This document shows, piece by piece, positions 16,074-32,000 of a DNA stretch of 32,000 bases. Every line of letters starts with the position of its first letter. Position 1 is the stretch's first letter. The DNA comes from Nostoc punctiforme PCC 73102 (GTDB lineage: Bacteria; Cyanobacteriota; Cyanobacteriia; Cyanobacteriales; Nostocaceae). Under the pieces are notes generated by a model. That model ran no database searches. It worked only from the letters and a program-made list of their open reading frames with translations, and was not told the DNA's origin. A program made the translations under genes and the position numbers. The DNA lies in the NCBI RefSeq assembly GCF_000020025.1, contig NC_010628.1, positions 5,310,001 through 5,342,000 of the forward strand, given 5' to 3'.

Positions 16074-16160
16074 AAACTTTCTCCTTGTAGATTTGCTAAT
16101 ATACCTCGTGGGTTAATTTAAGGTTAAGAATCACCAAATAATGCTGGATGATTGTTTCCA

Positions 16161-17507
16161 ATGAAAAATTCTGTTTTTAGCCAAAAAATCTATTCTTTTT
16201 TACTTGCTGCTTATCGATGGTACTTACAGACTCCTGAACGTTCTTTACATGAAGCTTACGATGCAGCATTAAAGATTAAGGAAATAGAAGATAAGCATTT
16301 TAGTGGTAATAAAATAGACATTGACTCAGCCACGTACAGTAACAGCGTGATGGATTATTTTGAGTCAGACCTCAACAAGCTTTTAAAAATTGCTAAGATG
16401 CGACTGACAGAGTTTAGAGCAAGCCGTTGGTTTTTAAATGAAGAAAATCAAAAAGCTGCTCAAAAAGCTGGTATAGAACATCCCAGTCCTTCTTTGGTTT
16501 TGGAAAAGCTAAACTTTATCGATCAAGTTATATCCAAATACACAATAAGTTCAGATCAAATAACTTCTAACGCTTTAGCAGTCAAACCTCCAAATCTACC
16601 AATTAACTCTGCCATATCTGATGACAAATTTCTGCTCGTCAATACTCCAACATTACCACCCAAAATACCAACTCAAGACTCAGAGAAAAAATCAAAACCA
16701 AAGGGTAAAGTAGATACAACAGGCGTTCTACCCCGTTCTATTTTAAGTACTATCACTCGTCTGCAAGTTGAATTAGATCCTAATTCTGAAAAAGAAGTAA
16801 TTCAGAATTTTCGTCAAACTCAAAGAAGAACAATAATATCTATCAGGTTTATTTTACTATTAATTATCATACCACTTTTGACGCATCAGATAGCAAAAGC
16901 TTTTGTCGTCGGGCCATCTGTTGAGCATTTTAGAAGTAGCGATCAGATGCAGATATTTATCAACTCAGAAATGGAAGAAGAAGCTCTTGAAGAATTAGAA
17001 AGATTTGAAGAAAAACTCAAGTTTGAAAATCTCATTATAAATGCTCCTCCACTGTCACCTGAACAGATGGAAGCTAAAATGACAGACAAGGCTGTAGAGC
17101 TTGCTAAAGAATTTCGTCAAGAAAGCTCTAATGCGATCAAAAATGTTTTTGCAGATATGTTCTCAGTTGGTGCTTTTATCTGGCTTTTGCTTGTTAGCAA
17201 GTCTTCTATTGCTGTAGTTAAAGATTTCTTTGATAATATTGTCTATGGACTTAGTGACAGTGCCAAGGCATTTATTATCATTTTGTTTACCGATATATTT
17301 GTCGGTTTCCACTCTCCTCACGGCTGGGAAGTACTCCTAGAAGGTGTATCGCGTCATTGGGGATTACCAGCAAATCGAGATTTTATTTTCTTGTTTATTG
17401 CGACATTTCCAGTGATTTTAGATACTATTTTCAAATATTGGATATTCCGATATTTGAACCGGATATCGCCTTCGGCAGTTGCCACTTATCGTAATATGAA
17501 TGAATAA
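16161..17507 (+). CDS. pxcA: proton extrusion protein PxcA (CemA family)
   Basis: The C-terminal ~230 aa match CemA/PxcA (FILLLIIIPLLTHQ..., FHSPHGWEVLLE, HWGLP, FIATFPVILDTIFKYWIFRYLNRISPSAVATYRNMNE). The long cyanobacterial N-terminal extension is present. The track starts at TTG 16152; the first ATG is at 16161. Confidence 0.8.
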   Translation: MKNSVFSQKIYSFLLAAYRWYLQTPERSLHEAYDAALKIKEIEDKHFSGNKIDIDSATYSNSVMDYFESDLNKLLKIAKMRLTEFRASRWFLNEENQKAAQKAGIEHPSPSLVLEKLNFIDQVISKYTISSDQITSNALAVKPPNLPINSAISDDKFLLVNTPTLPPKIPTQDSEKKSKPKGKVDTTGVLPRSILSTITRLQVELDPNSEKEVIQNFRQTQRRTIISIRFILLLIIIPLLTHQIAKAFVVGPSVEHFRSSDQMQIFINSEMEEEALEELERFEEKLKFENLIINAPPLSPEQMEAKMTDKAVELAKEFRQESSNAIKNVFADMFSVGAFIWLLLVSKSSIAVVKDFFDNIVYGLSDSAKAFIIILFTDIFVGFHSPHGWEVLLEGVSRHWGLPANRDFIFLFIATFPVILDTIFKYWIFRYLNRISPSAVATYRNMNE

Positions 17508-17585
17508 TGTATTGGGAATTGGGAACTAAATTATTTGGTTTTTGAATTTGAGCTAAGTAGGATAATATGAAAAACTTGAATTTTG

Positions 17586-18857
17586 ATGAAAAAGGCACTT
17601 GCTGGGTTAGGAAAGTTTAACAAAGTTAGCGCTATCAGCTTACCTGTAGTTTTGTCAATTTTCCTGGTGCGGATGCAATCTTTGGTGCATCAAGAACTCA
17701 GTCCGCCAGAATGTCGGTTGAAAAAGTGGGATATACCAGTTTCCTTGACTGGTGAAAATCAAAAAGCACCATTAATTCAGAGACTACCAGTTACTTGTTG
17801 TCAAGGTGATACATCTTGCTTGGATGAACTTCTTTATGGAGAAATACCAGACAAAAAGGCGCTATTGAGTGCGATCGCTCGGAGTCTCCAATACTTGCAA
17901 ACGGCTAATGCTGCGGCTGCTTATCAAAACTATCCAGTGGCGGGGATTACACGCGATCGCGTCTTCAAAAGCTTGAAAAGATTCCGCGAACTTGTCTTGA
18001 CAACTCATTCTGCAACAGAATTACATCAAGCCATCGAGCGAGAATTTGTTCTTTACCAGTCAGTCGGTAAAGACACTAAAGGTTCTGTTTTATTCACCGC
18101 CTATTATGAACCGATTTACGCAGCTAGTCGCGTCCCCACACCAGAATATCGCTATCCTGTTTATCGATTACCTCCTGATTTAAACTCCTGGCCTAAACCT
18201 CATCCGACACGAGAAGATTTAGAAGGAGCAGATGGTTTACAAGGCGCAAAAGGAAAATTACGAGGATTAGAGTTGTTTTGGTTTCGCTCACGCCTCGAAC
18301 CATATCTAGCTCAAATTGAAGGTTCAGCACGACTTCAGCTTCCCAATGGGACTCAGACTGCGATCGGCTATGCCGGTAATAATGCTTATAACTACACAAG
18401 TCTGGGTCGAGAATTAGCGAATGATGGCAAATTATCGCTACAAGGTATGACTATGCCAATTATTCTCGACTATTTTCAAAAGCATCCCCAAGAATTAAAT
18501 ATCTATATTCCGCGCGATCGCAGTTTTGTTTTTTTTCAAGAAAATCACGGTGAACCAGCTCAAGGTTCGATCAACGTACCCCTAACAGCAGAGCGTTCCA
18601 TCGCTACAGATAAATCTCTTATGCCTCCTGGTGCTTTAGCGTTGATTCGCGCTTCTATTCCTTTCGCTAATCCTACCGGAAAACTGGAGGAGCATATCGT
18701 TAGCCGCTATGTTCTTGACCAAGATACTGGCGGCGCAATTAAAGGTGCAGGTAGGGTAGATTATTTTTTAGGTACTGGTAAATTAGCAGGCGATCGCGCT
18801 GGTATCACAGTCAGTAATGGACAATTATTTTATCTACTACTCAAGTCCAAGAATTAA
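17586..18857 (+). CDS. mltA: membrane-bound lytic murein transglycosylase A (MltA family)
   Basis: 424-aa ORF. MltA-domain motifs (YYEPIY, EGSARLQLPNG) and a C-terminal 3D domain (DTGGAIKGAGRVDYFLGTG). The track starts at TTG 17583; the adjacent ATG is at 17586. Confidence 0.8.
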   Translation: MKKALAGLGKFNKVSAISLPVVLSIFLVRMQSLVHQELSPPECRLKKWDIPVSLTGENQKAPLIQRLPVTCCQGDTSCLDELLYGEIPDKKALLSAIARSLQYLQTANAAAAYQNYPVAGITRDRVFKSLKRFRELVLTTHSATELHQAIEREFVLYQSVGKDTKGSVLFTAYYEPIYAASRVPTPEYRYPVYRLPPDLNSWPKPHPTREDLEGADGLQGAKGKLRGLELFWFRSRLEPYLAQIEGSARLQLPNGTQTAIGYAGNNAYNYTSLGRELANDGKLSLQGMTMPIILDYFQKHPQELNIYIPRDRSFVFFQENHGEPAQGSINVPLTAERSIATDKSLMPPGALALIRASIPFANPTGKLEEHIVSRYVLDQDTGGAIKGAGRVDYFLGTGKLAGDRAGITVSNGQLFYLLLKSKN

Positions 18858-18876
18858 ACCTACTCGCATTTTCATA

Positions 18877-18917
18877 CTAAGAATCCCAACTTTTCTAAAA
18901 AAAGCCGGGATTCTTAG
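18877..18917. terminator. bidirectional stem-loop between convergent mltA and the 77-aa gene
   Basis: ctaagaatccc (18877-18887) / gggattcttag (18907-18917), an 11-bp perfect stem extendable by aactttt/aaaagcc with 2 mismatches. An A/T run lies in the loop region. Confidence 0.45.
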
Positions 18918-18968
18918 CCTTTCGGCGTAAATAAAATATACATTCCAAATTAATGAAACGCTTGGGGT

Positions 18969-18989
18969 AATTACGAATTACGAATTACG
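18969..18989. repeat. tandem heptamer AATTACG x3 overlapping the stop codon of the 77-aa gene
   Basis: aattacgaattacgaattacg read directly. The stop (tta, 18985-18987 on +) lies inside the third unit. Confidence 0.7.
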
Positions 18990-19218
18990 CTTCTATATCC
19001 ATATCACCATCATCATCATCATGATCGTAAGGAATATCATCAAGGTCGATCATTTCTGAAATTTCTTCTACTTCAGTTAGATACTCAGATTCTTGATGTT
19101 CACGCTCGATTAGACGACCAGTTGACTTTAGCCATTCCAAAAGAATAAACTCATTGCTTGTACGAATTACAGGCGCTCGTTGGTTACGAGGTTCTTCACG
19201 CAAAGGACTGATAGGCAT
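18985..19218 (-). CDS. small acidic cyanobacterial protein (DUF3134-like)
   Basis: 77-aa ORF, MPISPLREEPRNQRAPVIRTSNEFILLEWLKSTGRLI..., with a highly acidic tail (DHDDDDGDMDIEA). The N-terminal LREEPR...LL.WL..TGRL pattern resembles DUF3134 as I remember it. Confidence 0.45.
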   Translation of the reverse strand: MPISPLREEPRNQRAPVIRTSNEFILLEWLKSTGRLIEREHQESEYLTEVEEISEMIDLDDIPYDHDDDDGDMDIEA

Positions 19219-19421
19219 AAAAAAGACTCACTTTGAATTATGGATCACTGTACAAAAACAAGAAAATTGTACATTTAAGGTTAAAAGGCTCGTTAGGCAA
19301 GACTTTTATGAACAAATAAAATATGAACTATTGAGTTTTTTATTCTCTTGTCCGTCTACTTACTTACCATTAAAATGTCTTTGCGTCAGCCTTAATCATA
19401 AATCTTAAAGCGGACACAATC

Positions 19422-19850
19422 TCACAAAGCATTTGGTACCTTGCCGAGAGTTTCATACATATCAGGGGGTAATGCAGACAATCTGTTTGCTACAGCGACT
19501 GCATCAGCTAAATTGCTAAATTGGCACCGGACAATCTCTTGTCCATTTCCTGAAGGAAATCGCTTTCTAGCTTTGTTAGATACAGCACAAATAATCGCTA
19601 AAGCTTTGGCGAACCCATCTTTTGTTAAGATTGTTTCCTGAGCGAACCCTTCAACAGGGATAAGACAAACCTCAAACCGATAGCCAGGTCTGGGAGAAAC
19701 GGCTATATCGATATAAGGTTTATCTTCTTTTCTGATTCTGCGTAAATATTTGGCTGTGGAATTAGTATCGTGCAAATCAGTCCCAAGGGCGTAAGTAAAG
19801 AAACAATCTTCTGTGAGTGACTCAGGACGGGTAATTATATCCGTTGGCAT
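19422..19850 (-). CDS. hypothetical protein (orphan, 142 aa)
   Basis: Uninterrupted ORF with an ATG start and no recognisable motifs. It sits at the transition from HIP1-rich to HIP1-poor DNA. Confidence 0.5.
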   Translation of the reverse strand: MPTDIITRPESLTEDCFFTYALGTDLHDTNSTAKYLRRIRKEDKPYIDIAVSPRPGYRFEVCLIPVEGFAQETILTKDGFAKALAIICAVSNKARKRFPSGNGQEIVRCQFSNLADAVAVANRLSALPPDMYETLGKVPNAL

Positions 19851-20481
19851 AAGTTTAAGTACTACTATCCGTATGTATCTGGGTTTGTGACACAGTAAAC
19901 TTGTCCGTTCTTTTTAGCACATTTTTTGAAAGTGAGAAGTATTAGTTTTACGCCAGGTATTGCAATACAGTTCTACTCACTAAAAATTTCAATTTTTGCA
20001 ATCCTTAAAGACTCTCATCTTTAAAAGATGAATTTGCAATATAAACTGGCAAAAAACACCTCCAGAAGCAAAGTTTGTAGAGATTTAGATTCGGAGAGGT
20101 GTCCACATAGTCAGTTACATGACCGAAAATATTTCTCAACTATTCTATCATAACATAGTTGACGGTTGAACTTTTTCAACTATGTCTGACCCATAGATGC
20201 AAGGTCAACAACAGCATTAAGTTGTATTCAATTCCGATTTTTAGATAATTAAAGACACAGAGGGTGAATAGTTAGTGCGATCGCATCATCTTATAAAGTA
20301 AGGTGGGCACTGCTTTTAGTTCACTAAAATTTTTATTTTTAGCTTCTCCTCAGTCCCCAACCCCAGATGCTACTATGCAAAAAGGTCAAAGGCGAACAAG
20401 CCAAAGTAGTTGTGAGATTCATCCATTGGCAATCCCAAGACTACCTTGTTCATCTTTTTTGGTAGTTATAAACTTCTCAAA

Positions 20482-23400
20482 TTAGGAGGGAACACTCAAA
20501 TTAACTCGCACAATAACATCGTTAAAATCTTTGTCACCTCCACCAGCTAAATCCTCAAAGCCAAAGGTGTTATTCCCTAACAGACGAATATGATCTACCT
20601 TGTCGCTATTAGCACCCAAGAATGGGAAGTAAACTGCTGGATCATTATTAGGATTGCTATCTAAAACAGCATCTGGTCTGCCATTAATGATAATGAATGG
20701 TGCAAAGATAGAACCAGGCTCAAAAGTGCCTGTATAACTTGCCGTACCTTGGTTGTTCACCGTCAGGTCAATTCCTGCAACGCGTTGACGTAGTGCGGCT
20801 TCAGTATAACCAGCTTGGCCAACAAGAATATCTCCCTTACCATCGCCGTTGGTATCAATACCACCATTTTCATCAGCTACTTTATAAAATCCGACGAAAT
20901 TATTAAATGCAGCTTCTCGGTTGATTGCAAAATTAGCAGTTACCTGTTGTTCAACATCTCTTAAGTCAATTAATTCTCCTTGTGGTTGACCTTGTAGATT
21001 TGTACCCAAAGGTAACGCCTCAGTTGTAGGCTGAATTCTTACGACTAGATTCTGGAAATCATTAGTGCTATTACCAGAACCATCTTTCCAAGCCAAGGAG
21101 AACGCATTGTTATCTAAACTCGTAATTTTTTGATTTGAAGGATCAGAAAACAGTACGTCAGTGATTGGTGTAATATTAGTCAGCACATTATCAGTTGTAC
21201 TATTTTTGACTAAATAAAATCTCAGGTTAGTATCAGATGGTAACTCTAATGAAGCATTGAGAAGATTGTTGCTAAAACCATTGGGTGGATTAGCAATAGC
21301 TGAAAGAATTACCTGTCCTCTTTCTAAAGCTTTGCGGGCATAACCTGCTTCGCCCGGAGCAATACCGTCAATTTCGCCTGTAGCATCATCAACAGTATAT
21401 ACACCAAATTCATTCACCAGACTAGAATTACTGCCTGCGATCGCAACTTGCAGTGTTACCGTATCATTCTCACCTTTGATATTAAAGACATCATTACCAC
21501 TATTTGTAAGTTCTGGAGATTGTGGTTCAGGTTCAGGTTGTGGTTTTGGAGTACCAAAGATAACATAGGTTTGCCCAGCCCCAGGTGCGCCCACAAGCAA
21601 GTCATCAGCACCATCATTATTGATATCGCCAGCAGCGCTAACAGAAGTAGCAGAAGAATCAGTAGCATTAATACCGTTGATGGCAAAGCCCTGACTGGAG
21701 TCAAGGTTGGAAAGGTCGAGACTTTCACTAAAGCCGTTACTGCTGCCAAATACTACATAGCTTTGCCCAGCACCAGCTAAGGCAAAAGGTGCGCCAATAA
21801 TCAGGTCAGCAATGTCATCATCGTTGACATCTCCAGCCGCGCTAACTGAGTAGCCTGAGACATCATTGCCATTAATGCCTTTGATAGTAAAGCCGTTGCT
21901 GCCGTTGAGGTCTGAGAGGTTGAGACTTTCACTAAAGCCGCTACTGCTGCCAAACACCACATAGCTCTGTCCTGCACCAGAAGCGGTGTTGTATGCACCA
22001 ATGATTAAATCGTCGATGTCATCATTATTAACGTCTCCAGCATTACTGACTGAGGCACCAAAAAAGTCATTAGCATTGCCATTAATGACAAAACCGTTGC
22101 TGCCATTGAGACTAGACAGGTCGAAGTTCGCACTAAAGGCAGTAGTGCTGCCAAAAACCACGTAGCTCTTTCCAGTCCCTTGTGCGCCAATAATTAGGTC
22201 GCCAATGCCATCACGGTTAACGTCCCCAGCGCTGCTAACTGAGTTGCCTGATGAGTCGGTGCTGTTGCCATTGATGGCAAAGCCATTGCTGCCGTTAAGA
22301 TCTGAGAGGTTGAGGCTAGCACTAAATGCACTACTACTACCAAATACTACGTAGCTCTGCCCTCCACCTGAAACGGCACTGGGTGCGCCAATAATTAGGT
22401 CGTCAATGTTGTCGCCGTTGATGTCTCCGGCATTACTAACTGATGTGCCTGATGAGTCTGAGATGCCATCTGAGTTGCGCCCATTAATACCGTTAATGAC
22501 AAAGCCGTTGCTCCCATCCAATGATGAGAGGTCGAGGTTAGCATTGAAGCTGTTACGGCTGCCAAATACTATATAGCTCTGCCCTGCACCCAAAGCTGCA
22601 CCTGATGCACCGATAATTAGGTCGCCGATGCCGTCATTGTTAATATCCCCAGCATTGCTAACTGATGTGCCTGATGAGTCACTACTACTGCCGTTGATGG
22701 TAAAGCCGTTGCTGCCATTGAGGTCTGAGAGGTTGAGGCTGGTATTAAAGCCGTTGGTGCTGCCAAATACTACGTAGCTTTTTCCAGCACCAGGTGCGCC
22801 AATAATTAAATCGTCGATGTTGTCGCCGTTGATGTCTCCGGCATTACTGACTGAGTTACCTGATGAGTCACTAGCATTGCCGTTGAGGGTAAAGCCGTTG
22901 CTGCCGTTGAGGTCTGAGAGGTTGAATATAACTTGTGGTTGTGGTTGTGGTTCAGGTTCAGGTTGTGGTTTTGGAGTACCAAAGATAACATAGGTTTGCC
23001 CAGCCCCAGGTGCGCCCACAAGCAAGTCATCAGCACCATCATTATTGATATCGCCAGCAGCGCTAACAGAAGTAGCAGAAGAATCAGTAGCATTAATACC
23101 GTTGATGGCAAAGCCCTGACTGGAGTCAAGGTTGGAAAGGTCGAGACTTTCACTAAAGCCGTTACTGCTGCCAAATACTACATAGCTTTGCCCAGCACCA
23201 GCTAAGGCAAAAGGTGCGCCAATAATCAGGTCAGCAATGTCATCATCGTTGACATCTCCAGCCGCGCTAACTGAGTAGCCTGAGACATCATTGCCATTAA
23301 TGCCTTTGATAGTAAAGCCGTTGCTGCCGTTGAGGTCTGAGAGGTTGAGACTTTCACTAAAGCCGCTACTGCTGCCAAACACCACATAGCTCTGTCCTGC

Positions 23401-25794
23401 ACCAGAAGCGGTGTTGTATGCACCAATGATTAAATCGTCGATGTCATCATTATTAACGTCTCCAGCATTACTGACTGAGGCACCAAAAAAGTCATTAGCA
23501 TTGCCATTAATGACAAAACCGTTGCTGCCATTGAGACTAGACAGGTCGAAGTTCGCACTAAAGGCAGTAGTGCTGCCAAAAACCACGTAGCTCTTTCCAG
23601 TCCCTTGTGCGCCAATAATTAGGTCGCCAATGCCATCACGGTTAACGTCCCCAGCGCTGCTAACTGAGTTGCCTGATGAGTCGGTGCTGTTGCCATTGAT
23701 GGCAAAGCCATTGCTGCCGTTAAGATCTGAGAGGTTGAGGCTAGCACTAAATGCACTACTACTACCAAATACTACGTAGCTCTGCCCTCCACCTGAAACG
23801 GCACTGGGTGCGCCAATAATTAGGTCGTCAATGTTGTCGCCGTTGATGTCTCCGGCATTACTAACTGATGTGCCTGATGAGTCTGAGATGCCATCTGAGT
23901 TGCGCCCATTAATACCGTTAATGACAAAGCCGTTGCTCCCATCCAATGATGAGAGGTCGAGGTTAGCATTGAAGCTGTTACGGCTGCCAAATACTATATA
24001 GCTCTGCCCTGCACCCAAAGCTGCACCTGATGCACCGATAATTAGGTCGCCGATGCCGTCATTGTTAATATCCCCAGCATTGCTAACTGATGTGCCTGAT
24101 GAGTCACTACTACTGCCGTTGATGGTAAAGCCGTTGCTGCCATTGAGGTCTGAGAGGTTGAGGCTGGTATTAAAGCCGTTGGTGCTGCCAAATACTACGT
24201 AGCTTTTTCCAGCACCAGGTGCGCCAATAATTAAATCGTCGATGTTGTCGCCGTTGATGTCTCCGGCATTACTGACTGAGTTACCTGATGAGTCACTAGC
24301 ATTGCCGTTGAGGGTAAAGCCGTTGCTGCCGTTGAGGTCTGAGAGGTTGAATATAACTTGTGGTTGTGGTTGTGGTTCAGGTTCAGGTTCAGGTTGTGGT
24401 TTTGGAGTACCAAAGATAACATAGGTTTGCCCAGCACCAGGTGCGCCCACAAGCAAGTCGTCAGCACCATCATTGTTAATATCGCCAGCAGCACTAACAG
24501 AAGTAGCAGAGGAATCAGTAGCATTAATACCGTTGATGGCAAAGCCCTGACTAGGGTCAAGGTTGGAGAGGTCGAGACTTTCACTAAAGCCGTTACTGCT
24601 GCCAAATACTACATAGCTTTGCCCAGCACCAGCTAAGGCAAAAGGTGCGCCAATAATCAGGTCAGCAATGTCATCATCGTTGACATCTCCAGCCGCGCTA
24701 ACTGAGTAGCCTGAGACATCATTGCCATTAATGCCTTTGATAGTAAAGCCGTTGCTGCCGTTGAGGTCTGAGAGGTTGAGACTTTCACTAAAGCCGCTAC
24801 TGCTGCCAAACACCACATAGCTCTGTCCTGCACCAGAAGCGGTGTTGTATGCACCAATGATTAAATCGTCGATGTCATCATTATTAACGTCTCCAGCATT
24901 ACTGACTGAGGCACCAAAAAAGTCATTAGCATTGCCATTAATGACAAAACCGTTGCTGCCATTGAGACTAGACAGGTCGAAGTTCGCACTAAAGGCAGTA
25001 GTGCTGCCAAAAACCACGTAGCTCTTTCCAGTCCCTTGTGCGCCAATAATTAGGTCGCCAATGCCATCACGGTTAACGTCCCCAGCGCTGCTAACTGAGT
25101 TGCCTGATGAGTCGGTGCTGTTGCCATTGATGGCAAAGCCATTGCTGCCGTTAAGATCTGAGAGGTTGAGGCTAGCACTAAATGCACTACTACTACCAAA
25201 TACTACGTAGCTCTGCCCTCCACCTGAAACGGCACTGGGTGCGCCAATAATTAGGTCGTCAATGTTGTCGCCGTTGATGTCTCCGGCATTACTAACTGAT
25301 GTGCCTGATGAGTCTGAGATGCCATCTGAGTTGCGCCCATTAATACCGTTAATGACAAAGCCGTTGCTCCCATCCAATGATGAGAGGTCGAGGTTAGCAT
25401 TGAAGCTGTTACGGCTGCCAAATACTATATAGCTCTGCCCTGCACCCAAAGCTGCACCTGATGCACCGATAATTAGGTCGCCGATGCCGTCATTGTTAAT
25501 ATCCCCAGCATTGCTAACTGATGTGCCTGATGAGTCACTACTACTGCCGTTGATGGTAAAGCCGTTGCTGCCATTGAGGTCTGAGAGGTTGAGGCTGGTA
25601 TTAAAGCCGTTGGTGCTGCCAAATACTACGTAGCTTTTTCCAGCACCAGGTGCGCCAATAATTAAATCGTCGATGTTGTCGCCGTTGATGTCTCCGGCAT
25701 TACTGACTGAGTTACCTGATGAGTCACTAGCATTGCCGTTGAGGGTAAAGCCGTTGTTACCATCTAGGGACGATAGGTTGAATATATCAGCCAT
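20482..25794 (-). CDS. giant FG-GAP repeat protein: three tandem seven-blade propeller units plus two C-terminal DUF4114-like domains
   Basis: 1770-aa ORF with 21 repeats of GF.ING....G.SVS.AGD(I/V)N.D..DDL(I/L)(I/V)GA....G.SYV(V/I)FG (FG-GAP with DxNxDxxxD loops). (PQ/PE)n linkers join the units. The C-terminus has AWKDGSGNSTNDFQNLVVRIQP and FGFEDLAGGGDKDFNDVIVRVNL (DUF4114-type ends). Confidence 0.85.
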   Translation of the reverse strand: MADIFNLSSLDGNNGFTLNGNASDSSGNSVSNAGDINGDNIDDLIIGAPGAGKSYVVFGSTNGFNTSLNLSDLNGSNGFTINGSSSDSSGTSVSNAGDINNDGIGDLIIGASGAALGAGQSYIVFGSRNSFNANLDLSSLDGSNGFVINGINGRNSDGISDSSGTSVSNAGDINGDNIDDLIIGAPSAVSGGGQSYVVFGSSSAFSASLNLSDLNGSNGFAINGNSTDSSGNSVSSAGDVNRDGIGDLIIGAQGTGKSYVVFGSTTAFSANFDLSSLNGSNGFVINGNANDFFGASVSNAGDVNNDDIDDLIIGAYNTASGAGQSYVVFGSSSGFSESLNLSDLNGSNGFTIKGINGNDVSGYSVSAAGDVNDDDIADLIIGAPFALAGAGQSYVVFGSSNGFSESLDLSNLDPSQGFAINGINATDSSATSVSAAGDINNDGADDLLVGAPGAGQTYVIFGTPKPQPEPEPEPQPQPQVIFNLSDLNGSNGFTLNGNASDSSGNSVSNAGDINGDNIDDLIIGAPGAGKSYVVFGSTNGFNTSLNLSDLNGSNGFTINGSSSDSSGTSVSNAGDINNDGIGDLIIGASGAALGAGQSYIVFGSRNSFNANLDLSSLDGSNGFVINGINGRNSDGISDSSGTSVSNAGDINGDNIDDLIIGAPSAVSGGGQSYVVFGSSSAFSASLNLSDLNGSNGFAINGNSTDSSGNSVSSAGDVNRDGIGDLIIGAQGTGKSYVVFGSTTAFSANFDLSSLNGSNGFVINGNANDFFGASVSNAGDVNNDDIDDLIIGAYNTASGAGQSYVVFGSSSGFSESLNLSDLNGSNGFTIKGINGNDVSGYSVSAAGDVNDDDIADLIIGAPFALAGAGQSYVVFGSSNGFSESLDLSNLDSSQGFAINGINATDSSATSVSAAGDINNDGADDLLVGAPGAGQTYVIFGTPKPQPEPEPQPQPQVIFNLSDLNGSNGFTLNGNASDSSGNSVSNAGDINGDNIDDLIIGAPGAGKSYVVFGSTNGFNTSLNLSDLNGSNGFTINGSSSDSSGTSVSNAGDINNDGIGDLIIGASGAALGAGQSYIVFGSRNSFNANLDLSSLDGSNGFVINGINGRNSDGISDSSGTSVSNAGDINGDNIDDLIIGAPSAVSGGGQSYVVFGSSSAFSASLNLSDLNGSNGFAINGNSTDSSGNSVSSAGDVNRDGIGDLIIGAQGTGKSYVVFGSTTAFSANFDLSSLNGSNGFVINGNANDFFGASVSNAGDVNNDDIDDLIIGAYNTASGAGQSYVVFGSSSGFSESLNLSDLNGSNGFTIKGINGNDVSGYSVSAAGDVNDDDIADLIIGAPFALAGAGQSYVVFGSSNGFSESLDLSNLDSSQGFAINGINATDSSATSVSAAGDINNDGADDLLVGAPGAGQTYVIFGTPKPQPEPEPQSPELTNSGNDVFNIKGENDTVTLQVAIAGSNSSLVNEFGVYTVDDATGEIDGIAPGEAGYARKALERGQVILSAIANPPNGFSNNLLNASLELPSDTNLRFYLVKNSTTDNVLTNITPITDVLFSDPSNQKITSLDNNAFSLAWKDGSGNSTNDFQNLVVRIQPTTEALPLGTNLQGQPQGELIDLRDVEQQVTANFAINREAAFNNFVGFYKVADENGGIDTNGDGKGDILVGQAGYTEAALRQRVAGIDLTVNNQGTASYTGTFEPGSIFAPFIIINGRPDAVLDSNPNNDPAVYFPFLGANSDKVDHIRLLGNNTFGFEDLAGGGDKDFNDVIVRVNLSVPS
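21520..25755. repeat. 3 x ~1.43-kb near-identical tandem direct repeat inside the FG-GAP gene
   Basis: Periods are 1425 bp and 1431 bp (e.g. 21521 vs 22946; track ORFs 21801/23226/24657 and 22005/23430/24861 have identical alternative-frame translations). The only differences I found cluster at 24436-24568, plus a 6-bp indel in the linker. Confidence 0.9.
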
Positions 25795-25949
25795 GATTTT
25801 CTCGTATGTTTTTTATTAGCAATTGATGTAGATGTAAAATTTTTAAACAAATCACATTAGCATTAGTTAAAATCTAGGTTAAGTGAATTAATTGAAAACA
25901 TTTTGTATTTTTATGACATTCAAATAAATTCCTATTTTTTATAGGAACC

Positions 25950-25990
25950 ATTGTTTTAGAGGCAATTTATTGAATTACCTCTAAAACAAT
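25950..25990. terminator. 13-bp perfect stem-loop (possible terminator of the PstS-like gene or operator in the FG-GAP upstream region)
   Basis: attgttttagagg (25950-25962) / cctctaaaacaat (25978-25990) with a 15-nt loop and T-rich flanks. Preceded by a second hairpin, ttcctat ttttt ataggaa (25929-25947). Confidence 0.3.
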
Positions 25991-26170
25991 ATTTTTCTTA
26001 CATGAAACTAATGATTCATAAAAGTACCAACAGAATTAACTGTTGAACTTTCTGGCAGGCGGCTAGTACTTAGTAAGGATTTTGGTGCTTAAGAAATAAC
26101 TAAAGTCCTTACTACAAACTTGTTTACCTATTAAAGTTGGTGTGGTCAAGTACTAGGCAGATTTATCAAC

Positions 26171-27634
26171 TTAAGGGGTGCAAGGAGAAGCACCAGTGGT
26201 GGTGTTTACGCAAGTATTCACAACAGTTCTAGCCACTGTTTTGATCGTATTGGGAAGAGGAGCATATCCTCGATTTATAGCTATCTGATCTGGAGTGGGG
26301 TTGGAGGAATTGGTAGCGGGAGGAACTGGCTGTGTTGAATTTGCTAAAGCCCAGTTAATGAAGGTTCTAATATGAGTTGCTATCAAATTGCCTGTGGTAC
26401 TGTTTTGGTATACGTCATAAAACAGCGCATAAGTTGCTGCGGAAATTGGATAGGCAGTTGCAGCATTTGGATCGGCCAAGTTATCAATTCTAATCAGCCT
26501 GTTAGAAGGAGCAGTACCATATTTCACGATGGTTCCAACACTCAAAGCGCCTTGAATTCCAGCTGTTGTAGGACCAACGTATACATTTGCTTTGTTCTGT
26601 AAAAGTGCAGCAGGTAGACTTCTAGCTAAACGTGTAGCACTATCTACATAACCAATTGCACCATTATTGGCTGAGATTGCAGTGGCTACACCTCCACCTC
26701 CTGAAGCAGATAGGAAGGTGGTTGGCCAAACAACTGTGTTTGCTGGTGGTGTTGGAGGTACTGTACCTGAAGTACTTATGCTACCAACTCCTTTATCCCA
26801 TATATTAGCTGCTTGAATAGTTGAAGTCGCAGCAGTCTTACATACAGTATTGAGATGAGTGCTTAAAACAAAGGTACTACCACTATTGTCACTACGACGT
26901 ACAACTTTGATGGGTAAATTGACTGCAATGACTGCGCCGCCATTATCTGTTCTAATTCTGGAATCATTCCAATTTGTGATGGTGCCTTTCAAAATACCAC
27001 AGTAAGTATTTCGGGAAAGCTTCAGTCCGGCTGCTGGTATGCTAAGACCAGTACGGTTGTAAGATAACGTGATTCCAACACCTACTACAGGCACTTGAAT
27101 AGCCTTTCCGCTATTAGGTTTTCCAGTACCGATGGTGACTGTTTGTTCTATTTGTGTTCCTGCTAAAGGGTCGTCAGTAGCTGCAAACGAGACTGGGGCT
27201 AAAATGGTAGGGCCTGGTGATGCTAGTGGTACGGTTTGATTGAAAAAAGCTGCTATGCCTGCGCCGCTACCAACCGAAGCATATCTGAATGTGTCGTTAT
27301 TAACGACTGGGCCATAAGTTCCAACTGGGCAACTATTGGTGATTGCAGCTAAATCAGCATTGAGAGATGGAGGATTTCCAACGCCGAAAACGTTAAACCA
27401 TGAGCCTTTTGAACCAAAAGGACATGGATTCGTCTCTCCAGTACCTACAAACAAAGTATTTACAGTGCTTGCACCTAGACCATTTATGGAGGTTACTCCA
27501 GCTGGGGGAGGAGTAGTGGAAGTCTGAGCTAGAGATTTCTGAGTAGCTGATTGAGCAGCTAATAAACCAATTGTGATGGCAAGTACAGAAATTGAACTTG
27601 TCAAATTACTTAGGCGATCGCGGTAGAAAACCAT
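26171..27634 (-). CDS. PstS-family (phosphate-binding-protein-like) periplasmic substrate-binding protein, oversized and orphan
   Basis: PstS-type motifs YASVGSGAGIAAF, FAATDDPL, LSRNTYCGILKGTITNWND, VVRRSDNSGSTFVLSTHL, GAIGYVD, AYPISAATYALFY. Signal peptide MVFYRDRLSNLTSSISVLAITIGLLAAQSA. The track starts at TTG 27649, but ATG 27634 is preceded by AAGGAG at 6-nt spacing. Confidence 0.65.
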   Translation of the reverse strand: MVFYRDRLSNLTSSISVLAITIGLLAAQSATQKSLAQTSTTPPPAGVTSINGLGASTVNTLFVGTGETNPCPFGSKGSWFNVFGVGNPPSLNADLAAITNSCPVGTYGPVVNNDTFRYASVGSGAGIAAFFNQTVPLASPGPTILAPVSFAATDDPLAGTQIEQTVTIGTGKPNSGKAIQVPVVGVGITLSYNRTGLSIPAAGLKLSRNTYCGILKGTITNWNDSRIRTDNGGAVIAVNLPIKVVRRSDNSGSTFVLSTHLNTVCKTAATSTIQAANIWDKGVGSISTSGTVPPTPPANTVVWPTTFLSASGGGGVATAISANNGAIGYVDSATRLARSLPAALLQNKANVYVGPTTAGIQGALSVGTIVKYGTAPSNRLIRIDNLADPNAATAYPISAATYALFYDVYQNSTTGNLIATHIRTFINWALANSTQPVPPATNSSNPTPDQIAINRGYAPLPNTIKTVARTVVNTCVNTTTGASPCTP

Positions 27635-27640
27635 GTCAAG

Positions 27641-27646
27641 CTCCTT
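27641..27646 (-). promoter_or_regulatory. Shine-Dalgarno AAGGAG for the PstS-like gene
   Basis: Minus-strand reading ttgAAGGAGcttgacATG. The SD sits inside what the ORF track treats as codons 2-3, which argues for the ATG at 27634 as the true start. Confidence 0.5.
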
Positions 27647-28580
27647 CAAGTTAATTTTTGGGTGTTAACCCTAATAAATCCAAATCAAGTGTCAAACTGG
27701 CAATTATCAATAACCTTCTTTAAGGACAAAAACTGACACTGTAAAAATTATTGACAAATTAAAAGTTTGCACAAAGTGTTTAAGAATGTAGAGATAATTA
27801 AAAGCAAATTTATAAGAATTTTGAGCGTATTTAACTATTGTTAATACGCCAAGTTAAGTAATTTTTGCTAGTCAAAAACTCTACATTCTTAAAGTAAGTT
27901 CGCATAAATAAACATTCATAGCTTTAGTACAAGTAATTGGTTACTAGATACTATGAATTATGCCTTAATTCACATTTTCGGCTTCTTGTAACCTGTTAAA
28001 AAGCTACGTTTATTTTTACCAACTTACTTGTTTCGGATGGCAATTTTATCTTAAATTATGGAAATCACTTTATTTAATTCATATCCACAGCAGTTTGCAC
28101 AAGCTACCGCCAAGGTACAAAGTAAGGAAAGTCATGATTTCACTAATTTTTTGAGAATGCTATGGCTAATAGCTGTTGAAATTTGCCAACGGAATTAACA
28201 GTATAGTGTTAAGGTAAAGTTCAAGTCATGATTACATTATGAAATGATTAAAAAAAGTTAAATGTATTTTTTTAATTTATTCATTGTTTAAAAAGTAAGT
28301 TTTTTTGAGGTTTTTTATTACTCTGTCCAAAGTAAAATCTAATTTTTTCTTGAGGTTATGAATTTGCTTGCATGACTCTTTTAGAGTGTTTAATAATCTA
28401 TTCAATAAAGTATATACATTTTACAAATTAACCATAACCTGTATCAACGAAAATGCGTTGTTTCAGCAATTTATTAGTTGTGTAGGTATAGCCCAACCCA
28501 GGCATCGGAAAAAATAGCTGAAAAATCTAGCTATTATAATCAAAAACTTATAAGTAGGTCGGCATAAAAATTTGTCGTTG

Positions 28581-28670
28581 AGAGAAGGCAGGAGGGAAGA
28601 GAGTTTTTGTCTACTTTGTCTTTCTTTTCTTGCCTTGCTTCTCTTCTCCCCCTGCCCCCCGGCTGCCTTC
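28581..28670. repeat. composite G-rich / C-rich hairpin-forming repeat
   Basis: agagaaggcaggagggaagagag ... cttgccttgcttctcttctccccctgccccccggctgccttc. Same family as the other CTGCCCC-type repeats. It generates the spurious ORF 28463-28672. Confidence 0.6.
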
Positions 28671-28688
28671 AACCAAAAAATTCCTTAA

Positions 28689-28944
28689 CCGAACAGTATT
28701 GGAGCCACTTCTGCTGGTGGCTCATTTAACCACGGAACTACATTCAAGTTAAGTGTTAACGATTTCAGCACTTTGATACATTGCTCAACTTTACGGGAAC
28801 CGTCTTGCCGATAGAGGAACTAATCCAATTGCTAGATTATTCCAGGCAAGCAATGGAAATTTTTTATATAGGCTGACCTTCATAGGTGGCACAAGTAGCT
28901 TTGGCACATTGTTTCGCTTGGCATCACCAGATTTTACGCCTTAG
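28689..28944 (+). pseudogene. decayed fragment of a GloVer-type (choice-of-anchor tandem repeat) protein gene
   Basis: Two frames joined by a frameshift read PNSIGATSAGGSFNHGTTFKLSVNDFSTLIHCSTLRE* and YGNRLADRGTNPIARLFQASNGNFLYRLTFIGGTSSFGTLFRLASPDFTP*. This matches the GloVer repeat pattern (GG....GT(V/L)FKL ... tLh.F ... G..P.a.L.qa.nGnfYGtT..GG....GT(V/L)F(K/R)L). There is no start codon and there are internal stops. Confidence 0.4.
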
Positions 28945-29501
28945 CGGAGCTTAACCGTGTAGGTATCGCTTTAAAATAGCCCTGAACGCTGGCTTTCTGT
29001 TGTGCCTGTAAGCATACTCATAGAAATCCTAAATACAACTCAGCGCTCAAAACTCCGTCTGGAAAAGGAATTCAGATTTGACTCTAGCGATAGTGATTAA
29101 AGAGCGGTATGCTACCAAGGATTATCTCGCATTTCCAATGGATTCCCCAAACTCATAACTTTAAGAAGACTGTGGTAGTTCTGGTTAAAGGGACTTCTAA
29201 ACAAAAAAACATCCAACTATTTATTATGGGATGAGCAAGATGCCCGCCCTACAAGATTGGATAATTTATTTCTTGAAAATCTCAAAGGCTTGAAACCTAG
29301 TCTCTCAAATCATGCATACTTAATTAAATAAGTATTAATGTTTTGTTAACTTAACTTAATATAGGTTTGTGTATAGTATAGGACTTTGCTAGCTATAACT
29401 TTATAATTTGAGGATAAATAAATGTTAGATCATGTAAAATTGTAATGCTTGTAAAATTTGAAACAACCAACACTCATAGTACACCATAGGAAAATTAGCA
29501 A

Positions 29502-30122
29502 ATGTCTAGACAAAGTTCTCACAAGAGAAACTTTTTCAAAGCTTTAACTGGTAGCGCTGTCAAAGGATCTCATAAGTTAAGACTGGGACTGGAATCCAGT
29601 TTATTCATTCTGATTGAATCTATACCTTTTTTGATTGCTTGTGCTGTACTTGTAAGCGTTATCAGCCTAAAAAGTCCTATCCTGCTTTTTTGTTTACTAG
29701 TTGGTAGTTTAATTGCAGTCATTACCCAGCAAATTGGGCAGCAGTTTCATTTACCCAGGCGATCGCTAATATTATTGCAAATAATAGCAGCAGCCATCAT
29801 TCTGAGTTTTTATTGGTTAGACTGTTTTGCAGGCCCCGCACAAGCGCAGTTTTTTGGGGAAGCTGAAAAGTTTTTCAAAAAAACTTTGAGTGATAGTTCA
29901 ACAACAAATAGTGGTGGTAGCAACACAGCTGTAAGTTTGATATTTAATGTGTTGCGGGCGATTTACTTACTATATATTGCAATCTCCCTGGTCGGTGTGA
30001 TCAACGCAGTGCGTAAAGATGAAGATTGGCAAAGCATTGCCAGAACTCCCCTATTAGTCGTTGTTGCTGTTACTATTGCTGATGTACTCACACGCTTTGT
30101 AATTGGCGATAGCAGTAAATAA
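29502..30122 (+). CDS. polytopic membrane protein; the C-terminal 91 aa have a VirB2/TrbC pilin-like layout (speculative)
   Basis: 206-aa ORF with aggaaa 9-14 nt upstream of the ATG. Three N-terminal TM helices are followed by A113-Q-A115|Q (AxA signal-peptidase-like site), a polar stretch and two more hydrophobic helices. First gene of a tight three-gene set. Confidence 0.45.
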   Translation: MSRQSSHKRNFFKALTGSAVKGSHKLRLGLESSLFILIESIPFLIACAVLVSVISLKSPILLFCLLVGSLIAVITQQIGQQFHLPRRSLILLQIIAAAIILSFYWLDCFAGPAQAQFFGEAEKFFKKTLSDSSTTNSGGSNTAVSLIFNVLRAIYLLYIAISLVGVINAVRKDEDWQSIARTPLLVVVAVTIADVLTRFVIGDSSK

Positions 30123-30136
30123 TTCAGATATTTCAA

Positions 30137-30514
30137 ATGTCTCAAGAGCGGGAACAAGAATTTCGTCCAGTTAATCAGGTTCTGGGAAGCCAACCTTCTC
30201 TAGGGCCCATCCCTGCCGATCAAATTCTTCCTTGGACGGTGATTGCCTTAGCCTCCTACTTTATTATCAATGGAATTTTTGGGGGTCTTTTCCAAGAAGA
30301 ATTTCAAAAATGGTTGTGGACAGTACTAATGACTGGTTGGGGAATAGGAACCTGGTGGATTTTAACTGGTGGTAGGAGTTGGAGTTTTTTAAGTAAATTT
30401 ATTGGCGTTCCCGCTTGGACAAGAGGCTTTGCTCGTTATCAAAGCTTACTGGAAGTTAACCATGAAGCAAAAAATCGGAAAACAAAGCGTCGGCATCGCC
30501 GGAAACGAAAGTAG
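30137..30514 (+). CDS. small 2-TM membrane protein, VirB3/TrbD-like by topology and position
   Basis: 125-aa ORF starting 14 nt after the previous stop. It has a polar N-terminus (RPVNQVLGSQPSLGPIPADQIL), two adjacent TM helices and a strongly basic tail (KNRKTKRRHRRKRK). It lies immediately upstream of, and overlaps, the VirB4-like ORF. Confidence 0.45.
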   Translation: MSQEREQEFRPVNQVLGSQPSLGPIPADQILPWTVIALASYFIINGIFGGLFQEEFQKWLWTVLMTGWGIGTWWILTGGRSWSFLSKFIGVPAWTRGFARYQSLLEVNHEAKNRKTKRRHRRKRK

Positions 30515-32000
30515 ATTAACACCATTTGAAGATGCCTTACACTTGGCGACAATGTTACGTGTCGCTATGAATGGACGCGATATTGGTGCATACCTTTTGA
30601 CAAAAGGCACTCAAAAAGATCGGTTTTGCTTTGTTTTTGGTTTTGACTGTAAGGGAATTCATACTACCTTAAGACCCGAACAAATCGATACACTTTTTAA
30701 TAACATTGAAGCTGGATTAAAAGATATCCCTAGCGGTGAAAGAATGACACTGCACTTGGGATCTTTTAGCTCCGACAAAGAGCGCCAAAAAGAATTAGCA
30801 TCACTAATCAAAAATGCGCCATCACGAGATATCAAATACTTGTTGATGGCAGAAAGAGCCAGAGTCAAAGAACTGACTGTTTCTGGTGTTCGCAAGCCAA
30901 AATTTTTGCGGATTTATGTCACCTACACCATTGAATCTAACTCACAACATGCAGATGATTGGATAGAGAAGCTTTTAGTCAAAGCTGAATCATGGTGGTT
31001 GAAATTCAAAGGTGAACTCTCAGAAGTAGAAAATCAGCGCATCGAAACCCTAATCACAAATGCTTACAAGCAGGGTTTTCTGCGTTGGGAACAGATTTTA
31101 TCTAATCAAATGGGATTGGATATCAAACCTTTGACAGCAGATGAACTCTGGAAAGAGGTCTGGAAAAGGTTTAATGATACAGAGGCAATAGAGATTCCTC
31201 AGTTGATGACATTAGATGAACAAGGACTGCACGAGCAAGTCAATTCAGATTTAGCTAGTACTAAATTGCTCATAGACAATATCCACGGCACAACTTTGCT
31301 GATGGAGTCTAGCGTACCTTGTGCCGATCGCCGTTGGGTTAATGTTAACAATCGTTATATTGGCGCACTGTCATTTCTCGAAAAACCCGGAGGTTGGCCA
31401 AATAAATCTTCCCAACTGCGATATTTATGGGAATTATTGGCCAGAGAAAGAGTAGCAGATACAGAGATTTTTTGTGAGTTGACTGCCGCAAATCCAGCAA
31501 TGGTAAAAACGACTTTGCAACGAGTGCTGAAGCAGTCAAACATGACGACAATCATGGCTCAAGAAAAAAGTAAAACCATTGATGTTAACGCTCAATTGAA
31601 GCTGAAGAAATCGGTAGCGGCGCAAGAACAATTATTTGAAGGTGCAGTCCCGATTTATACGAGTATTGCTATTTTGGTACACCGTCCAACTGTTGAAAAA
31701 TTAGATGAGGCAATAAGGTATATTGAAAACTGTTTTCAACGTCCAGCAAGGGTAATTAGGGAAACTGAATATGCCTGGAAAATTTGGCTGCAAACTCTAC
31801 CAATAGTTTGGGAAGGTTTATTAGCAACACCTTTTAACCGTCGTCAGCTATATTTAACCAGTGAAGTTCCTGGATTAATGCCTTTAGTTTTAACTAAACG
31901 GGGTGACAAAGAAGGCTTTGAATTGATTGCCGAAGAAGGCGGAACACCGGTACATTTAGATTTGTTTAATCAACACAAAAACTTAGCTTTGTTTGCAACA
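30462..32000 (+). CDS. VirB4/TraC/TrbE-family type IV secretion ATPase, N-terminal 513 codons (continues beyond window)
   Basis: I translated the frame by hand (codons starting at positions divisible by 3). It is open from the stop at 30390-30392 to 32000, and the first ATG is at 30462 (MKQKIGKQSVGIAGNESRLTPFEDALHLAT...). The domain order resembles the VirB4 N-terminal region. It ends ...EEGGTPVHLDLFNQHKNLALFAT, i.e. just where the Walker A (GxxGxGKS/T) normally follows. Missing from the ORF track because no stop lies in the window. Confidence 0.55.
   Translation, partial: MKQKIGKQSVGIAGNESRLTPFEDALHLATMLRVAMNGRDIGAYLLTKGTQKDRFCFVFGFDCKGIHTTLRPEQIDTLFNNIEAGLKDIPSGERMTLHLGSFSSDKERQKELASLIKNAPSRDIKYLLMAERARVKELTVSGVRKPKFLRIYVTYTIESNSQHADDWIEKLLVKAESWWLKFKGELSEVENQRIETLITNAYKQGFLRWEQILSNQMGLDIKPLTADELWKEVWKRFNDTEAIEIPQLMTLDEQGLHEQVNSDLASTKLLIDNIHGTTLLMESSVPCADRRWVNVNNRYIGALSFLEKPGGWPNKSSQLRYLWELLARERVADTEIFCELTAANPAMVKTTLQRVLKQSNMTTIMAQEKSKTIDVNAQLKLKKSVAAQEQLFEGAVPIYTSIAILVHRPTVEKLDEAIRYIENCFQRPARVIRETEYAWKIWLQTLPIVWEGLLATPFNRRQLYLTSEVPGLMPLVLTKRGDKEGFELIAEEGGTPVHLDLFNQHKNLALFAT

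Follow-up and report, generated by a model that had tools for sequence, protein, structure and literature searches.

Introduction

The class C of mating-pair-formation (MPF) type IV secretion systems (T4SSs), or MPF-C, is cyanobacterial and known only computationally, as the first-pass annotation of the DNA described here had noted; it is the sole diderm T4SS class without experimental study (PMC3548315, PMC4027160, PMC5587801). Its computational reference is the alr7204-alr7213 set of plasmid pCC7120alpha, together with the MobV relaxase alr7199 (Guglielmini et al. 2012/2014; PMC4027160), in which alr7206 is the reference VirB4 of the class (PMC4027160, PMC8600333). Eight MPF-C profiles exist according to the defining work (PMC4027160). 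Here we describe positions 29502-32000 of a 32,000-nt stretch of Nostoc punctiforme PCC 73102 DNA (contig NC_010628.1, positions 5,310,001 to 5,342,000 of the forward strand; the whole stretch is referred to as "the window"), which hold the first genes of a relative of this set. With a probability of roughly 70%, we read this segment as the front of a nine-gene MPF-C T4SS that is chromosomal, vertically inherited and exapted, serving a host function and not a mobile element.

Precedents for such machines are available from other MPF classes. Helicobacter pylori ComB is an MPF-T system exapted for DNA uptake, i.e., for a chromosomal host function, and consists of VirB2-, B3-, B4-, B6-, B8-, B9- and B10-like parts without a coupling protein or relaxase. 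The Ptl system of Bordetella pertussis, also devoid of a type IV coupling protein (T4CP), exports toxin from the periplasm. The natural competence of cyanobacteria, by contrast, is ascribed to type IV pili. Broadly, some protein-exporting T4SSs (pT4SSs) do without a T4CP, exporting from the periplasm; pT4SSs are known only within MPF-T and MPF-I (Abby et al. 2016, PMC4793230).

A Relaxase-Less Relative of the pCC7120alpha Cluster

The window contains the front end of the cluster only, with virB4 running past base 32000. On recomputation, three same-strand open reading frames (ORFs) were recovered as they had been annotated (Table 1), with products of 206 and 125 aa and with 513 open codons from the ATG at 30462; the 14-nt gap between the first and second ORFs and the 53-nt overlap between the second and third were borne out, and the peptide blocks quoted for the large ORF were all found in its translation. 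These three genes are not chance ORFs, since they have hundreds of conserved homologues and ratios of nonsynonymous to synonymous substitution (dN/dS) of 0.04-0.23.

The genes beyond 32000 were taken from proxy loci (L052, L022 and L027) whose DNA is 97% identical to 29502-32000. The L052 cluster comprises nine genes, with products of 206, 125, ~915, 276, 349, 266, 234, 544 and 190 aa. By BLASTP, the downstream proteins pair with those of pCC7120alpha: 261/276 aa with alr7207, 349 aa with alr7208, 274 and 228 aa with alr7209 (twice), 524/544 aa with alr7210, and 190 aa with alr7211. The 276-aa alr7207-like product, with a signal peptide and a helical region, is a putative secreted protein; the 349-aa alr7208-like protein has five transmembrane (TM) segments and is VirB6-like; the 266- and 234-aa alr7209-like products are paralogous bitopic proteins; the 544-aa protein carries a TrbI/VirB10 domain; and the 190-aa alr7211-like protein combines a signal peptide with a periplasmic domain. 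The VirB6- and VirB10-like genes that were to be looked for downstream have thus both been found, through the proxy loci, and TrbI/VirB10 and MPF-C genes lie 3' of virB4 in L001, L052, L086 and 74-78 of the 80 loci. Seven of the eight MPF-C accessory families (the alr7204-alr7212 set, under the profile names alr7204, alr7205 and alr7207-alr7212, which we take to be those of CONJscan) are present in the same order, and the alr7212 family is absent from 80/80 loci. The identity of VirB4, the orthologues of alr7204 and alr7205 and the downstream genes of the proxy loci together uphold the proposal that an MPF-C-type T4SS cluster begins with this module.

Set beside pCC7120alpha, the chromosomal cluster has orthologues of alr7204, alr7205, VirB4, alr7207, alr7208, alr7209, VirB10 and alr7211 in the same order; its VirB4 is of the same cyanobacteria-specific clade, and VirB11 is found in neither. 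The plasmid cluster is adjoined by a MobV relaxase, an integrase, alr7212 and VirD4 (alr7213), whereas the chromosomal one has no MobV, VirD4, alr7212 homologue or integrase nearby (±10 kb). It further differs in its duplicated alr7209-like gene, in two extra N-terminal TM helices in the Nostocales first-gene product, and in being chromosomal, syntenic and vertically inherited instead of plasmid-borne.

Homologues occur throughout the genera of Nostocales, and the same gene order is seen in Komarekiella and Calothrix. In Nostoc sp. PCC 7120 the orthologues are all0471 through all0463, as judged from the gene sizes in the table of Flaherty 2011 (PMC3141674); the PCC 7120 neighbourhood was reconstructed both from locus-tag offsets in other genomes and from the supplement of that paper, and the two agree. 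Outside this order, the 880-kb replicon of the unicellular Gloeothece verrucosa PCC 7822 carries the same relaxase-less set in a permuted arrangement (L083, 9071-17655), i.e., alr7207-like, VirB6-like, two alr7209-like, VirB10, a 135-aa short form of the first-gene product, VirB3-like and VirB4; its VirB4 shares 76-77% identity with that of Nostoc, and no alr7211-like gene was detected nearby. A ~60%-identical clade on an Allocoleopsis plasmid is typed as conjugative with MOBV and retains alr7212.

The VirB4-Family ATPase

The large ORF is securely identified as a VirB4-family ATPase, N-terminal domain included, by orthology to alr7206, by fold and by motifs. A homology search gave 116 relatives, of which the full-length ones have 885-896 aa and include all0469 of PCC 7120. 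The part inside the window covers the N-terminal domain in full and, of the RecA-like ATPase domain, the first strand. A Walker A motif had been predicted directly after the window end, and the homologues indeed continue ...LALFAT|TRAGKS, the motif ATTRAGKS starting with the last two in-window codons (31995-32000); Walker B (IFFIDEAP) lies downstream of it in the homologues, and both motifs are invariant in alignments of 13 and 28 homologous sequences. In a tblastn search against plasmids, the protein matched pCC7120alpha 214650-217223, which is alr7206, with 54% identity over 98% of its length (E = 0). Taking all comparisons, identity to alr7206 ranges from 48 to 54%, and it is on this pairwise identity that the assignment to the MPF-C VirB4 clade rests. 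The gene has a dN/dS of 0.06, and its product is the sole genuine P-loop protein in the cluster.

The overlapping start at ATG 30462 is credible because it is kept in all related loci inspected (with an in-frame stop just 5' in several), and because the 30-residue N-terminal extension that it adds aligns with alr7206 from residue 8 on. Many database homologues of VirB4 are annotated from a Met 30 codons further downstream.

Curated profiles gave little for this family. The three window proteins had no match in Pfam, NCBIfam or PDB sequences; full-length VirB4 homologues had only sub-threshold DUF87/HerA P-loop and AAA_22 signals in Pfam, with no VirB4 model among them; and a weak FtsK P-loop match was all that the family profile returned from PDB sequences. 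The profile check proposed in the first-pass annotation (Pfam CagE_TrbE_VirB, AAA_10, TraC_F_IV) accordingly returned no VirB4/TraC match for the window fragment, a failure that we ascribe to the extreme divergence of the MPF-C clade and not to a different fold. Sequence profiles being blind to this VirB4, the comparison was made at the level of fold, using an AlphaFold2 (AF2) model of a full-length homologue (P0003) that is 87% identical to the window protein. Both VirB4 domains are present in the model, which has a predicted local distance difference test score (pLDDT) of 81 and a predicted template-modelling score (pTM) of 0.76. Foldseek against PDB placed R388 TrwK/VirB4 chains at ranks 1-14, over ~940 columns and with template-modelling (TM) scores of 0.55-0.67; the best match was TrwK/VirB4 8rtd_O (E 7.7e-20, TM score 0.59/0.64), and the C-terminal domain of Thermoanaerobacter VirB4 (4ag5, 2e-8), TrwB (2e-6) and HerA (0.03) came lower. 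The cluster thus has in common with R388 Trw (8rtd, 7o41, 7o43) the two-domain VirB4 fold, as well as a small membrane protein encoded directly 5' of virB4. Unlike in R388, no Pfam VirB4 model detects the MPF-C protein, the identity between the two VirB4 proteins is only 11-14%, and the small proteins have no demonstrable homology to TrwL/VirB2 or TrwM/VirB3.

The weak profile signals could be taken to mean that the large ORF encodes a translocase of the HerA/FtsK type, part of some unrelated system, and not a T4SS ATPase: DUF87/HerA, although below threshold, is the only Pfam signal, the PDB profile search gave weak FtsK only, and some database labels of homologues read "Helicase HerA central domain". 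We give this reading almost no credence, as the full-length fold fits VirB4 at E 8e-20 and HerA at just E 0.03, the protein is orthologous to alr7206, and its gene keeps company with TrbI/VirB10 and the other MPF-C genes; a HerA/FtsK identity is ruled out by the Foldseek result. The VirB4/TraC-like call originally made for the third ORF therefore holds, on alr7206 orthology, the full-length TrwK fold match and the Walker motifs.

The Two Small Membrane Proteins

The 125-aa protein is 39% identical to alr7205 (BLASTP, E 1e-23), and an N-terminal motif, FRPVNQILG..P.LGP.PADQI.PW, is conserved in its family. By Kyte-Doolittle hydropathy it has a strong segment at residues 30-48, a Trp/Gly-rich second segment at 58-78 that stays below the threshold, and a basic tail at the C-terminal end. 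The classical signature of VirB3 is to be fused to VirB4 or encoded immediately upstream of it. The 125-aa gene (dN/dS 0.035) stands directly 5' of virB4, whose start it overlaps by the 53 nt given above, and in an hhalign comparison its family corresponds to residues 1-94 of P0092, an in-frame fusion to a VirB4 homologue (probability 97.9%, E 4e-13). P0092 is a protein of Tolypothrix sp. PCC 7601 and a VirB4 relative with 34% identity. From the position and this natural fusion, it is reasonably supported that the 125-aa protein is a VirB3-like partner of VirB4. The family had no match among Pfam and PDB sequences; of the earlier VirB3-like call, the place next to virB4 is kept and strengthened by the fusion, while profile similarity to VirB3 is absent. 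An HHsearch link between one MPF-C profile and VirB3/TraL is described in Guglielmini 2014, the accessible part of which does not name the gene (PMC4027160).

As a side observation, residues 16-44 of P0092 have a faint PrgI match (PF12666, E 0.09). The same Tolypothrix strain also encodes a chromosomal-clade VirB4 and two plasmid-clade VirB4s.

The 206-aa protein is 45% identical to alr7204 over its C-terminal 100 aa (BLASTP, E 6e-29). Three N-terminal hydrophobic helices are followed by a P-A-Q-A-Q-F-F motif and then by a core of ~90 aa, in which an amphipathic stretch and a G/S/T/N-rich loop precede two hydrophobic helices joined by a RKDEDWQ loop. The AQA|Q site pointed out at first reading lies at residues 113-116, has 91 residues after it and belongs to a motif that is nearly invariant in the family: across clades, a hydrophobic segment is followed by (P/S)-A-x-A-Q-F-F and ~90 residues, with AR(K/N)D(E/D)DWQ as the helix-joining loop. 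Hydropathy peaks at 146-164 and 179-197 and AF2 helices at 139-172 and 176-200, which flank the RKDEDWQ loop, agree at the level of secondary structure. The Gloeothece homologue is the 135-aa short form, with a classical basic plus hydrophobic signal peptide ending ASA|QFF; because this form has an ordinary signal peptide, the two extra N-terminal TM helices are a Nostocales-specific addition. Signal-peptidase cleavage at AQA|Q is predicted from the motif, as a candidate site.

The 206-aa gene has a dN/dS of 0.23, and none of its 476 homologues has a Pfam domain. In an exhaustive profile search of 1.84 billion proteins the family came to no more than 264 clusters (50% identity), and no bridge to a known pilin family was found among the best 150 of these 264 clusters. 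We therefore propose the 206-aa protein as a candidate prepilin, an analogue of VirB2 by layout and not by demonstrated homology. The architecture on which the VirB2/TrbC pilin call had been founded is confirmed, and profile and fold comparisons fell short of showing homology. In Guglielmini 2014, no VirB2 homologue was found in MPF-C either (PMC4027160). The alr7204 family is a candidate for the missing MPF-C pilin.

Genomic Context and Inheritance

Mobility genes were surveyed within ±10 kb of the cluster in the 80 best Nostoc-type genome loci. Homologues of the MobV relaxase, VirD4, integrase and alr7212 were found in 0/80 loci, and the 29.5 kb of the window upstream of the cluster hold no relaxase or VirD4 homologue. 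A search for element boundaries gave no tRNA and no meaningful flanking repeats, nor any Rfam family in 27000-32000. The coupling protein, relaxase, integrase and att repeats that a conjugative element would bring were thus looked for, and none was seen within the surveyed range.

In all loci examined the cluster is at the same site, with its ORFs intact in 74-81 loci. Its upstream neighbours encode MsrA, DUF202, a 734-aa protein, CemA, MltA, DUF3134 and a 142-aa protein, and downstream it is followed by two small ORFs, PlsY, DUF3086 and DUF3119; the genes of either flank are found again next to the cluster in 38-67 loci, with 83-97% identity. The window blocks 12017-20291 and 29284-32000 match L052 collinearly, with ~360 bp separating them there, which indicates a ~9-kb insertion at 20292-29283 in the window. 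This insertion is strain-specific and holds a 1770-aa gene, a PstS-like gene and the AT-rich spacer. Among 60 Nostoc loci, the gap between the 142-aa gene and the cluster varies from 0.7 to 9.7 kb, that of the window being the largest, and the position of the cluster is constant. The 1.85-kb AT-rich, ORF-poor spacer noticed in the first pass is real (GC 0.30-0.38), but it is not the edge of an element, as had been supposed, because it is part of a strain-specific insertion in a variable gap beside which the cluster stays put.

Composition and rates of change point the same way. The GC content is 39.7% in the cluster vs. 40.4% in the flanks. Synonymous divergence (dS) from other Nostoc is 0.27-0.46 for cluster genes and 0.35-0.39 for the flanks, and the dN/dS of the cluster (0.035-0.23) is as low as or lower than that of neighbouring housekeeping genes. 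Pairwise distances of VirB4, the slowest-evolving gene of the neighbourhood, correlate with those of CemA, MltA, DUF3086 and PlsY at r = 0.67-0.86, and with those of another cluster gene at 0.70. Taken together, synteny, GC, dS, dN/dS and the distance correlation argue for vertical inheritance under strong constraint, unlike what an ICE (integrative and conjugative element) or a decaying remnant would give.

Upstream Region and Expression

The ~180 nt that precede the first gene are likely to act as the promoter and leader of the operon, a putative role suggested by sequence conservation. They contain palindromic ATTAAT/GTTAAC blocks and a conserved TATAAT at 29402-29407, a Shine-Dalgarno-like AGGAAA lies 8-13 nt 5' of the ATG of the 206-aa gene, and alignment with the closest loci resumes at window position 29284. 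A generic scan for sigma-70 promoters and terminators gave no enrichment over shuffles.

In PCC 7120, transcripts of part of the cluster rise after nitrogen step-down. Reads at 0/6/12/21 h were 33/28/194/186 for all0469 (5.9- and 5.6-fold), 9/15/61/60 for all0468 (6.7- and 6.8-fold) and 1/3/8/11 for all0463 (7.7- and 10.6-fold) (Flaherty 2011, PMC3141674), and the remaining cluster genes changed 1- to 2.8-fold (PMC3141674). Since expression is low and counts are small, we treat nitrogen induction as a lead and not as a result. Despite this reported induction, no conserved NtcA site (GTAN8TAC) is present in 29320-29501 across 12 loci. Simm et al. list all0463 as one of the heterocyst-former-specific genes whose function is unknown (PMC4365693). 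A FurC box 5' of all0465 is an in-silico prediction, and all0465 is not among the validated targets in the accessible part of its source.

Separately, one candidate NtcA site, GTAN8GAC at 29372-29385, was considered and rejected, as it is not conserved among the 12 aligned loci.

Origin and Possible Function of the Cluster

The reading that we prefer is that of an MPF-C machine turned to a job of its host, and the cluster has probably been repurposed for something other than conjugation. A conjugative MPF-C ancestor would have been captured by the chromosome, would have lost its DNA-processing and coupling module, and would then have been passed on vertically. By analogy with R388, hexameric VirB4 bound to the VirB3-like protein may power the assembly of an envelope-spanning channel of VirB6/8/10-like proteins; VirB4 would probably also pull the processed first-gene product (~90 aa) out of the membrane to build a pilus or pseudopilus. 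The system may be deployed under nitrogen deprivation. Having no coupling protein or relaxase, the machine alone cannot conjugate relaxase-bound DNA, and the lack of a coupling protein makes T4CP-independent working, as in ComB or Ptl, the most likely mode.

Both of these systems are instructive as comparisons. Like ComB, the cluster is chromosomal, has a reduced inventory and lacks coupling protein and relaxase, a comparison that sets established knowledge of ComB against genes alone here; unlike the cluster, ComB has recognisable VirB2/B3 homology, and DNA uptake is seen in ComB only. Like Ptl and other T4CP-less pT4SSs, it is a relaxase-less and T4CP-less chromosomal T4SS, and these offer a precedent that such a machine can function; it differs from Ptl in belonging to another MPF class and in being found in a free-living phototroph and not in a pathogen. 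The fuller picture, to which we would give slightly under even odds, is that of a domesticated MPF-C machine in the vertical gene set of heterocyst formers (with relatives in Gloeothece), free of relaxase and T4CP, switched on late after nitrogen step-down, equipped with an unrecognised pilin and handling a non-conjugative substrate, be it by protein export, DNA uptake or DNA release.

The integrated element with its own MPF-C conjugation machinery that the first-pass annotation had suggested, whether the edge of an ICE or of some other recently integrated mobile element, draws on the fact that the closest characterised relatives sit on conjugative plasmids with MOBV relaxases, and on composition: 29502-32000 has a single highly iterated palindrome 1 (HIP1) site where the first 20 kb of the window average 1.13 per kb; as had been noted, 2.5 kb of HIP1-poor DNA lie behind an AT-rich spacer, and HIP1 is mildly depleted cluster-wide in 63 loci. 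Such an element is nonetheless very improbable in view of the empty mobility survey (±10 kb) of 80/80 loci, the want of tRNA or flanking repeat, the identical site between housekeeping genes across Nostoc, the dS and GC shared with the flanks, the co-variation of VirB4 distances with those of flanking genes, and the origin of the spacer in a separate insertion, in a gap of changing length beside a fixed cluster. If not mobile, the cluster might be what is left of an ancient conjugative element, in decay and without a function today, and the missing mobility genes and very low transcripts in PCC 7120 would fit this; it is, however, scarcely tenable for a set whose ORFs are intact in 74-81 loci, whose Walker motifs are invariant, whose dN/dS is 0.035-0.23 with VirB4 the slowest-evolving gene locally, and which shows regulated induction after nitrogen step-down in PCC 7120.

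A chromosomal MPF "helper", which would still serve conjugation with a coupling protein and relaxase supplied in trans by plasmids or other elements, deserves more attention. It is common for a Nostoc genome to contain several MPF-C plasmids along with MOBV relaxases; in PCC 7120, VirB4 paralogues are encoded on pCC7120alpha and beta; many cyanobacterial plasmids have a relaxase without VirB4 or VirD4 (PMC8600333); and, apart from alr7212, every structural MPF gene is kept under selection. On the other hand, T4CPs co-evolve with the MPF class, and the VirD4 clade associated with MPF-C is monophyletic (PMC3548315); the plasmids bring a complete MPF of their own, with a VirB4 only 54-60% identical; and a gene set that serves mobile elements would not usually be conserved vertically across a whole order. 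Only the relaxase-less clade, Gloeothece included, has lost alr7212 and duplicated the alr7209-like gene, which argues for its functional divergence. We rate the helper as unlikely because plasmids own a distinct MPF and because the relaxase-less clade has this gene loss and duplication of its own.

Several points weigh against the exapted, vertically inherited T4SS that we favour. For the genes past virB4 the evidence comes from a relative with 97% identity, the window ending inside virB4. The survey spans ±10 kb, so a T4CP or relaxase encoded elsewhere, e.g., on Nostoc MPF-C plasmids, could act in trans. HIP1 is mildly depleted (0.58 per kb in the cluster vs. 0.87 in the flanks, 63 loci), which could be a trace of foreign origin. 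Cluster transcripts in PCC 7120 are scarce, and the fold changes of all0463 derive from 1-11 reads (PMC3141674). As for the small proteins, Pfam gave no pilin domain, divergent members of the 206-aa family included, and the AF2 model of the 206-aa protein is poor (pLDDT 56), with nothing returned by Foldseek. With profiles of VirB2 and VirB3 built from annotated plasmids, hhalign gave the 206-aa family a probability of 15-25% against VirB2/TrbC (controls 0.1-0.5%), the alignment being confined to the signal peptide, cleavage site and first mature residues; for the 125-aa family against a seven-sequence MPF-T VirB3 profile the probability was 0.3%, equal to controls.

If the domesticated reading is true, MPF-C would be the third MPF class with a non-conjugative T4SS, and this the first one in a free-living phototroph. 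In the genetic model PCC 7120 the cluster offers a directly testable case of T4SS exaptation, embodied in nine "unknown protein" genes with a reported response to nitrogen deprivation, and it could reveal a new route of secretion, pilus formation or DNA exchange relevant to heterocyst biology, symbiosis and gene transfer. It also matters for annotation, as finders of mobile elements keyed to VirB4 would wrongly call the locus an ICE remnant. No paper on the chromosomal all0471-all0463 cluster or on the relaxase-less MPF-C clade was found, in a search that left much subscription literature outside, and no functional study of all0461-all0473 or of a chromosomal cyanobacterial T4SS was found in the literature.

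Other Features of the Window

Table 1. Cluster genes, leader and neighbouring features, in window coordinates.
Feature	Position	Strand	Description
Candidate prepilin gene	29502-30122	+	206 aa; first of cluster; orthologue of all0471 and alr7204
VirB3-like gene	30137-30514	+	125 aa; orthologue of all0470 and alr7205
VirB4-family ATPase gene, 5' part	30462-32000	+	513 codons of a ~915-aa protein; orthologue of all0469 and alr7206
Conserved leader/putative promoter	29320-29501	+	~180 nt; conserved blocks across 12 loci
Conserved 734-aa protein gene	13869-16073	-	92% identity in 38 loci; dN/dS 0.09; no Pfam domain
MltA-family lytic transglycosylase gene	17583-18857	+	Syntenic 2-3 genes 5' of cluster, 58-61 loci
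FG-GAP/DUF4114 repeat protein gene	20482-25794	-	1770 aa; Pfam E 4e-129; 21 FG-GAP stretches
PBP_like_2 (PstS-type) periplasmic binding protein gene	26171-27649	-	492 aa; long Thr/Pro-rich N-terminus

Among the neighbours, MltA could supply the VirB1-like opening of peptidoglycan that is absent from the cluster, although its linkage may equally be a coincidence. On the far side, two small predicted ORFs (79 and 89 aa; L052, 19291-19850) stand just 3' of the last cluster gene, and are kept in 67 loci with 83-91% identity; in PCC 7120, the gene of a ~1829-aa hypothetical protein, all0462, directly abuts the cluster end (PMC3141674). The giant repeat protein of the window differs from all0462 and is on the opposite side of the cluster.

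Within the strain-specific insertion, the PstS-like gene has fast-evolving homologues (44-59% identity) in the same variable gap in 27 loci. The 1770-aa FG-GAP protein is likely, from its repeats, a surface or adhesin protein that was recently expanded or acquired: its gene contains three internal tandem copies of ~1425 nt with DNA identity of 96-100%, and has a homologue in 1/80 related loci.

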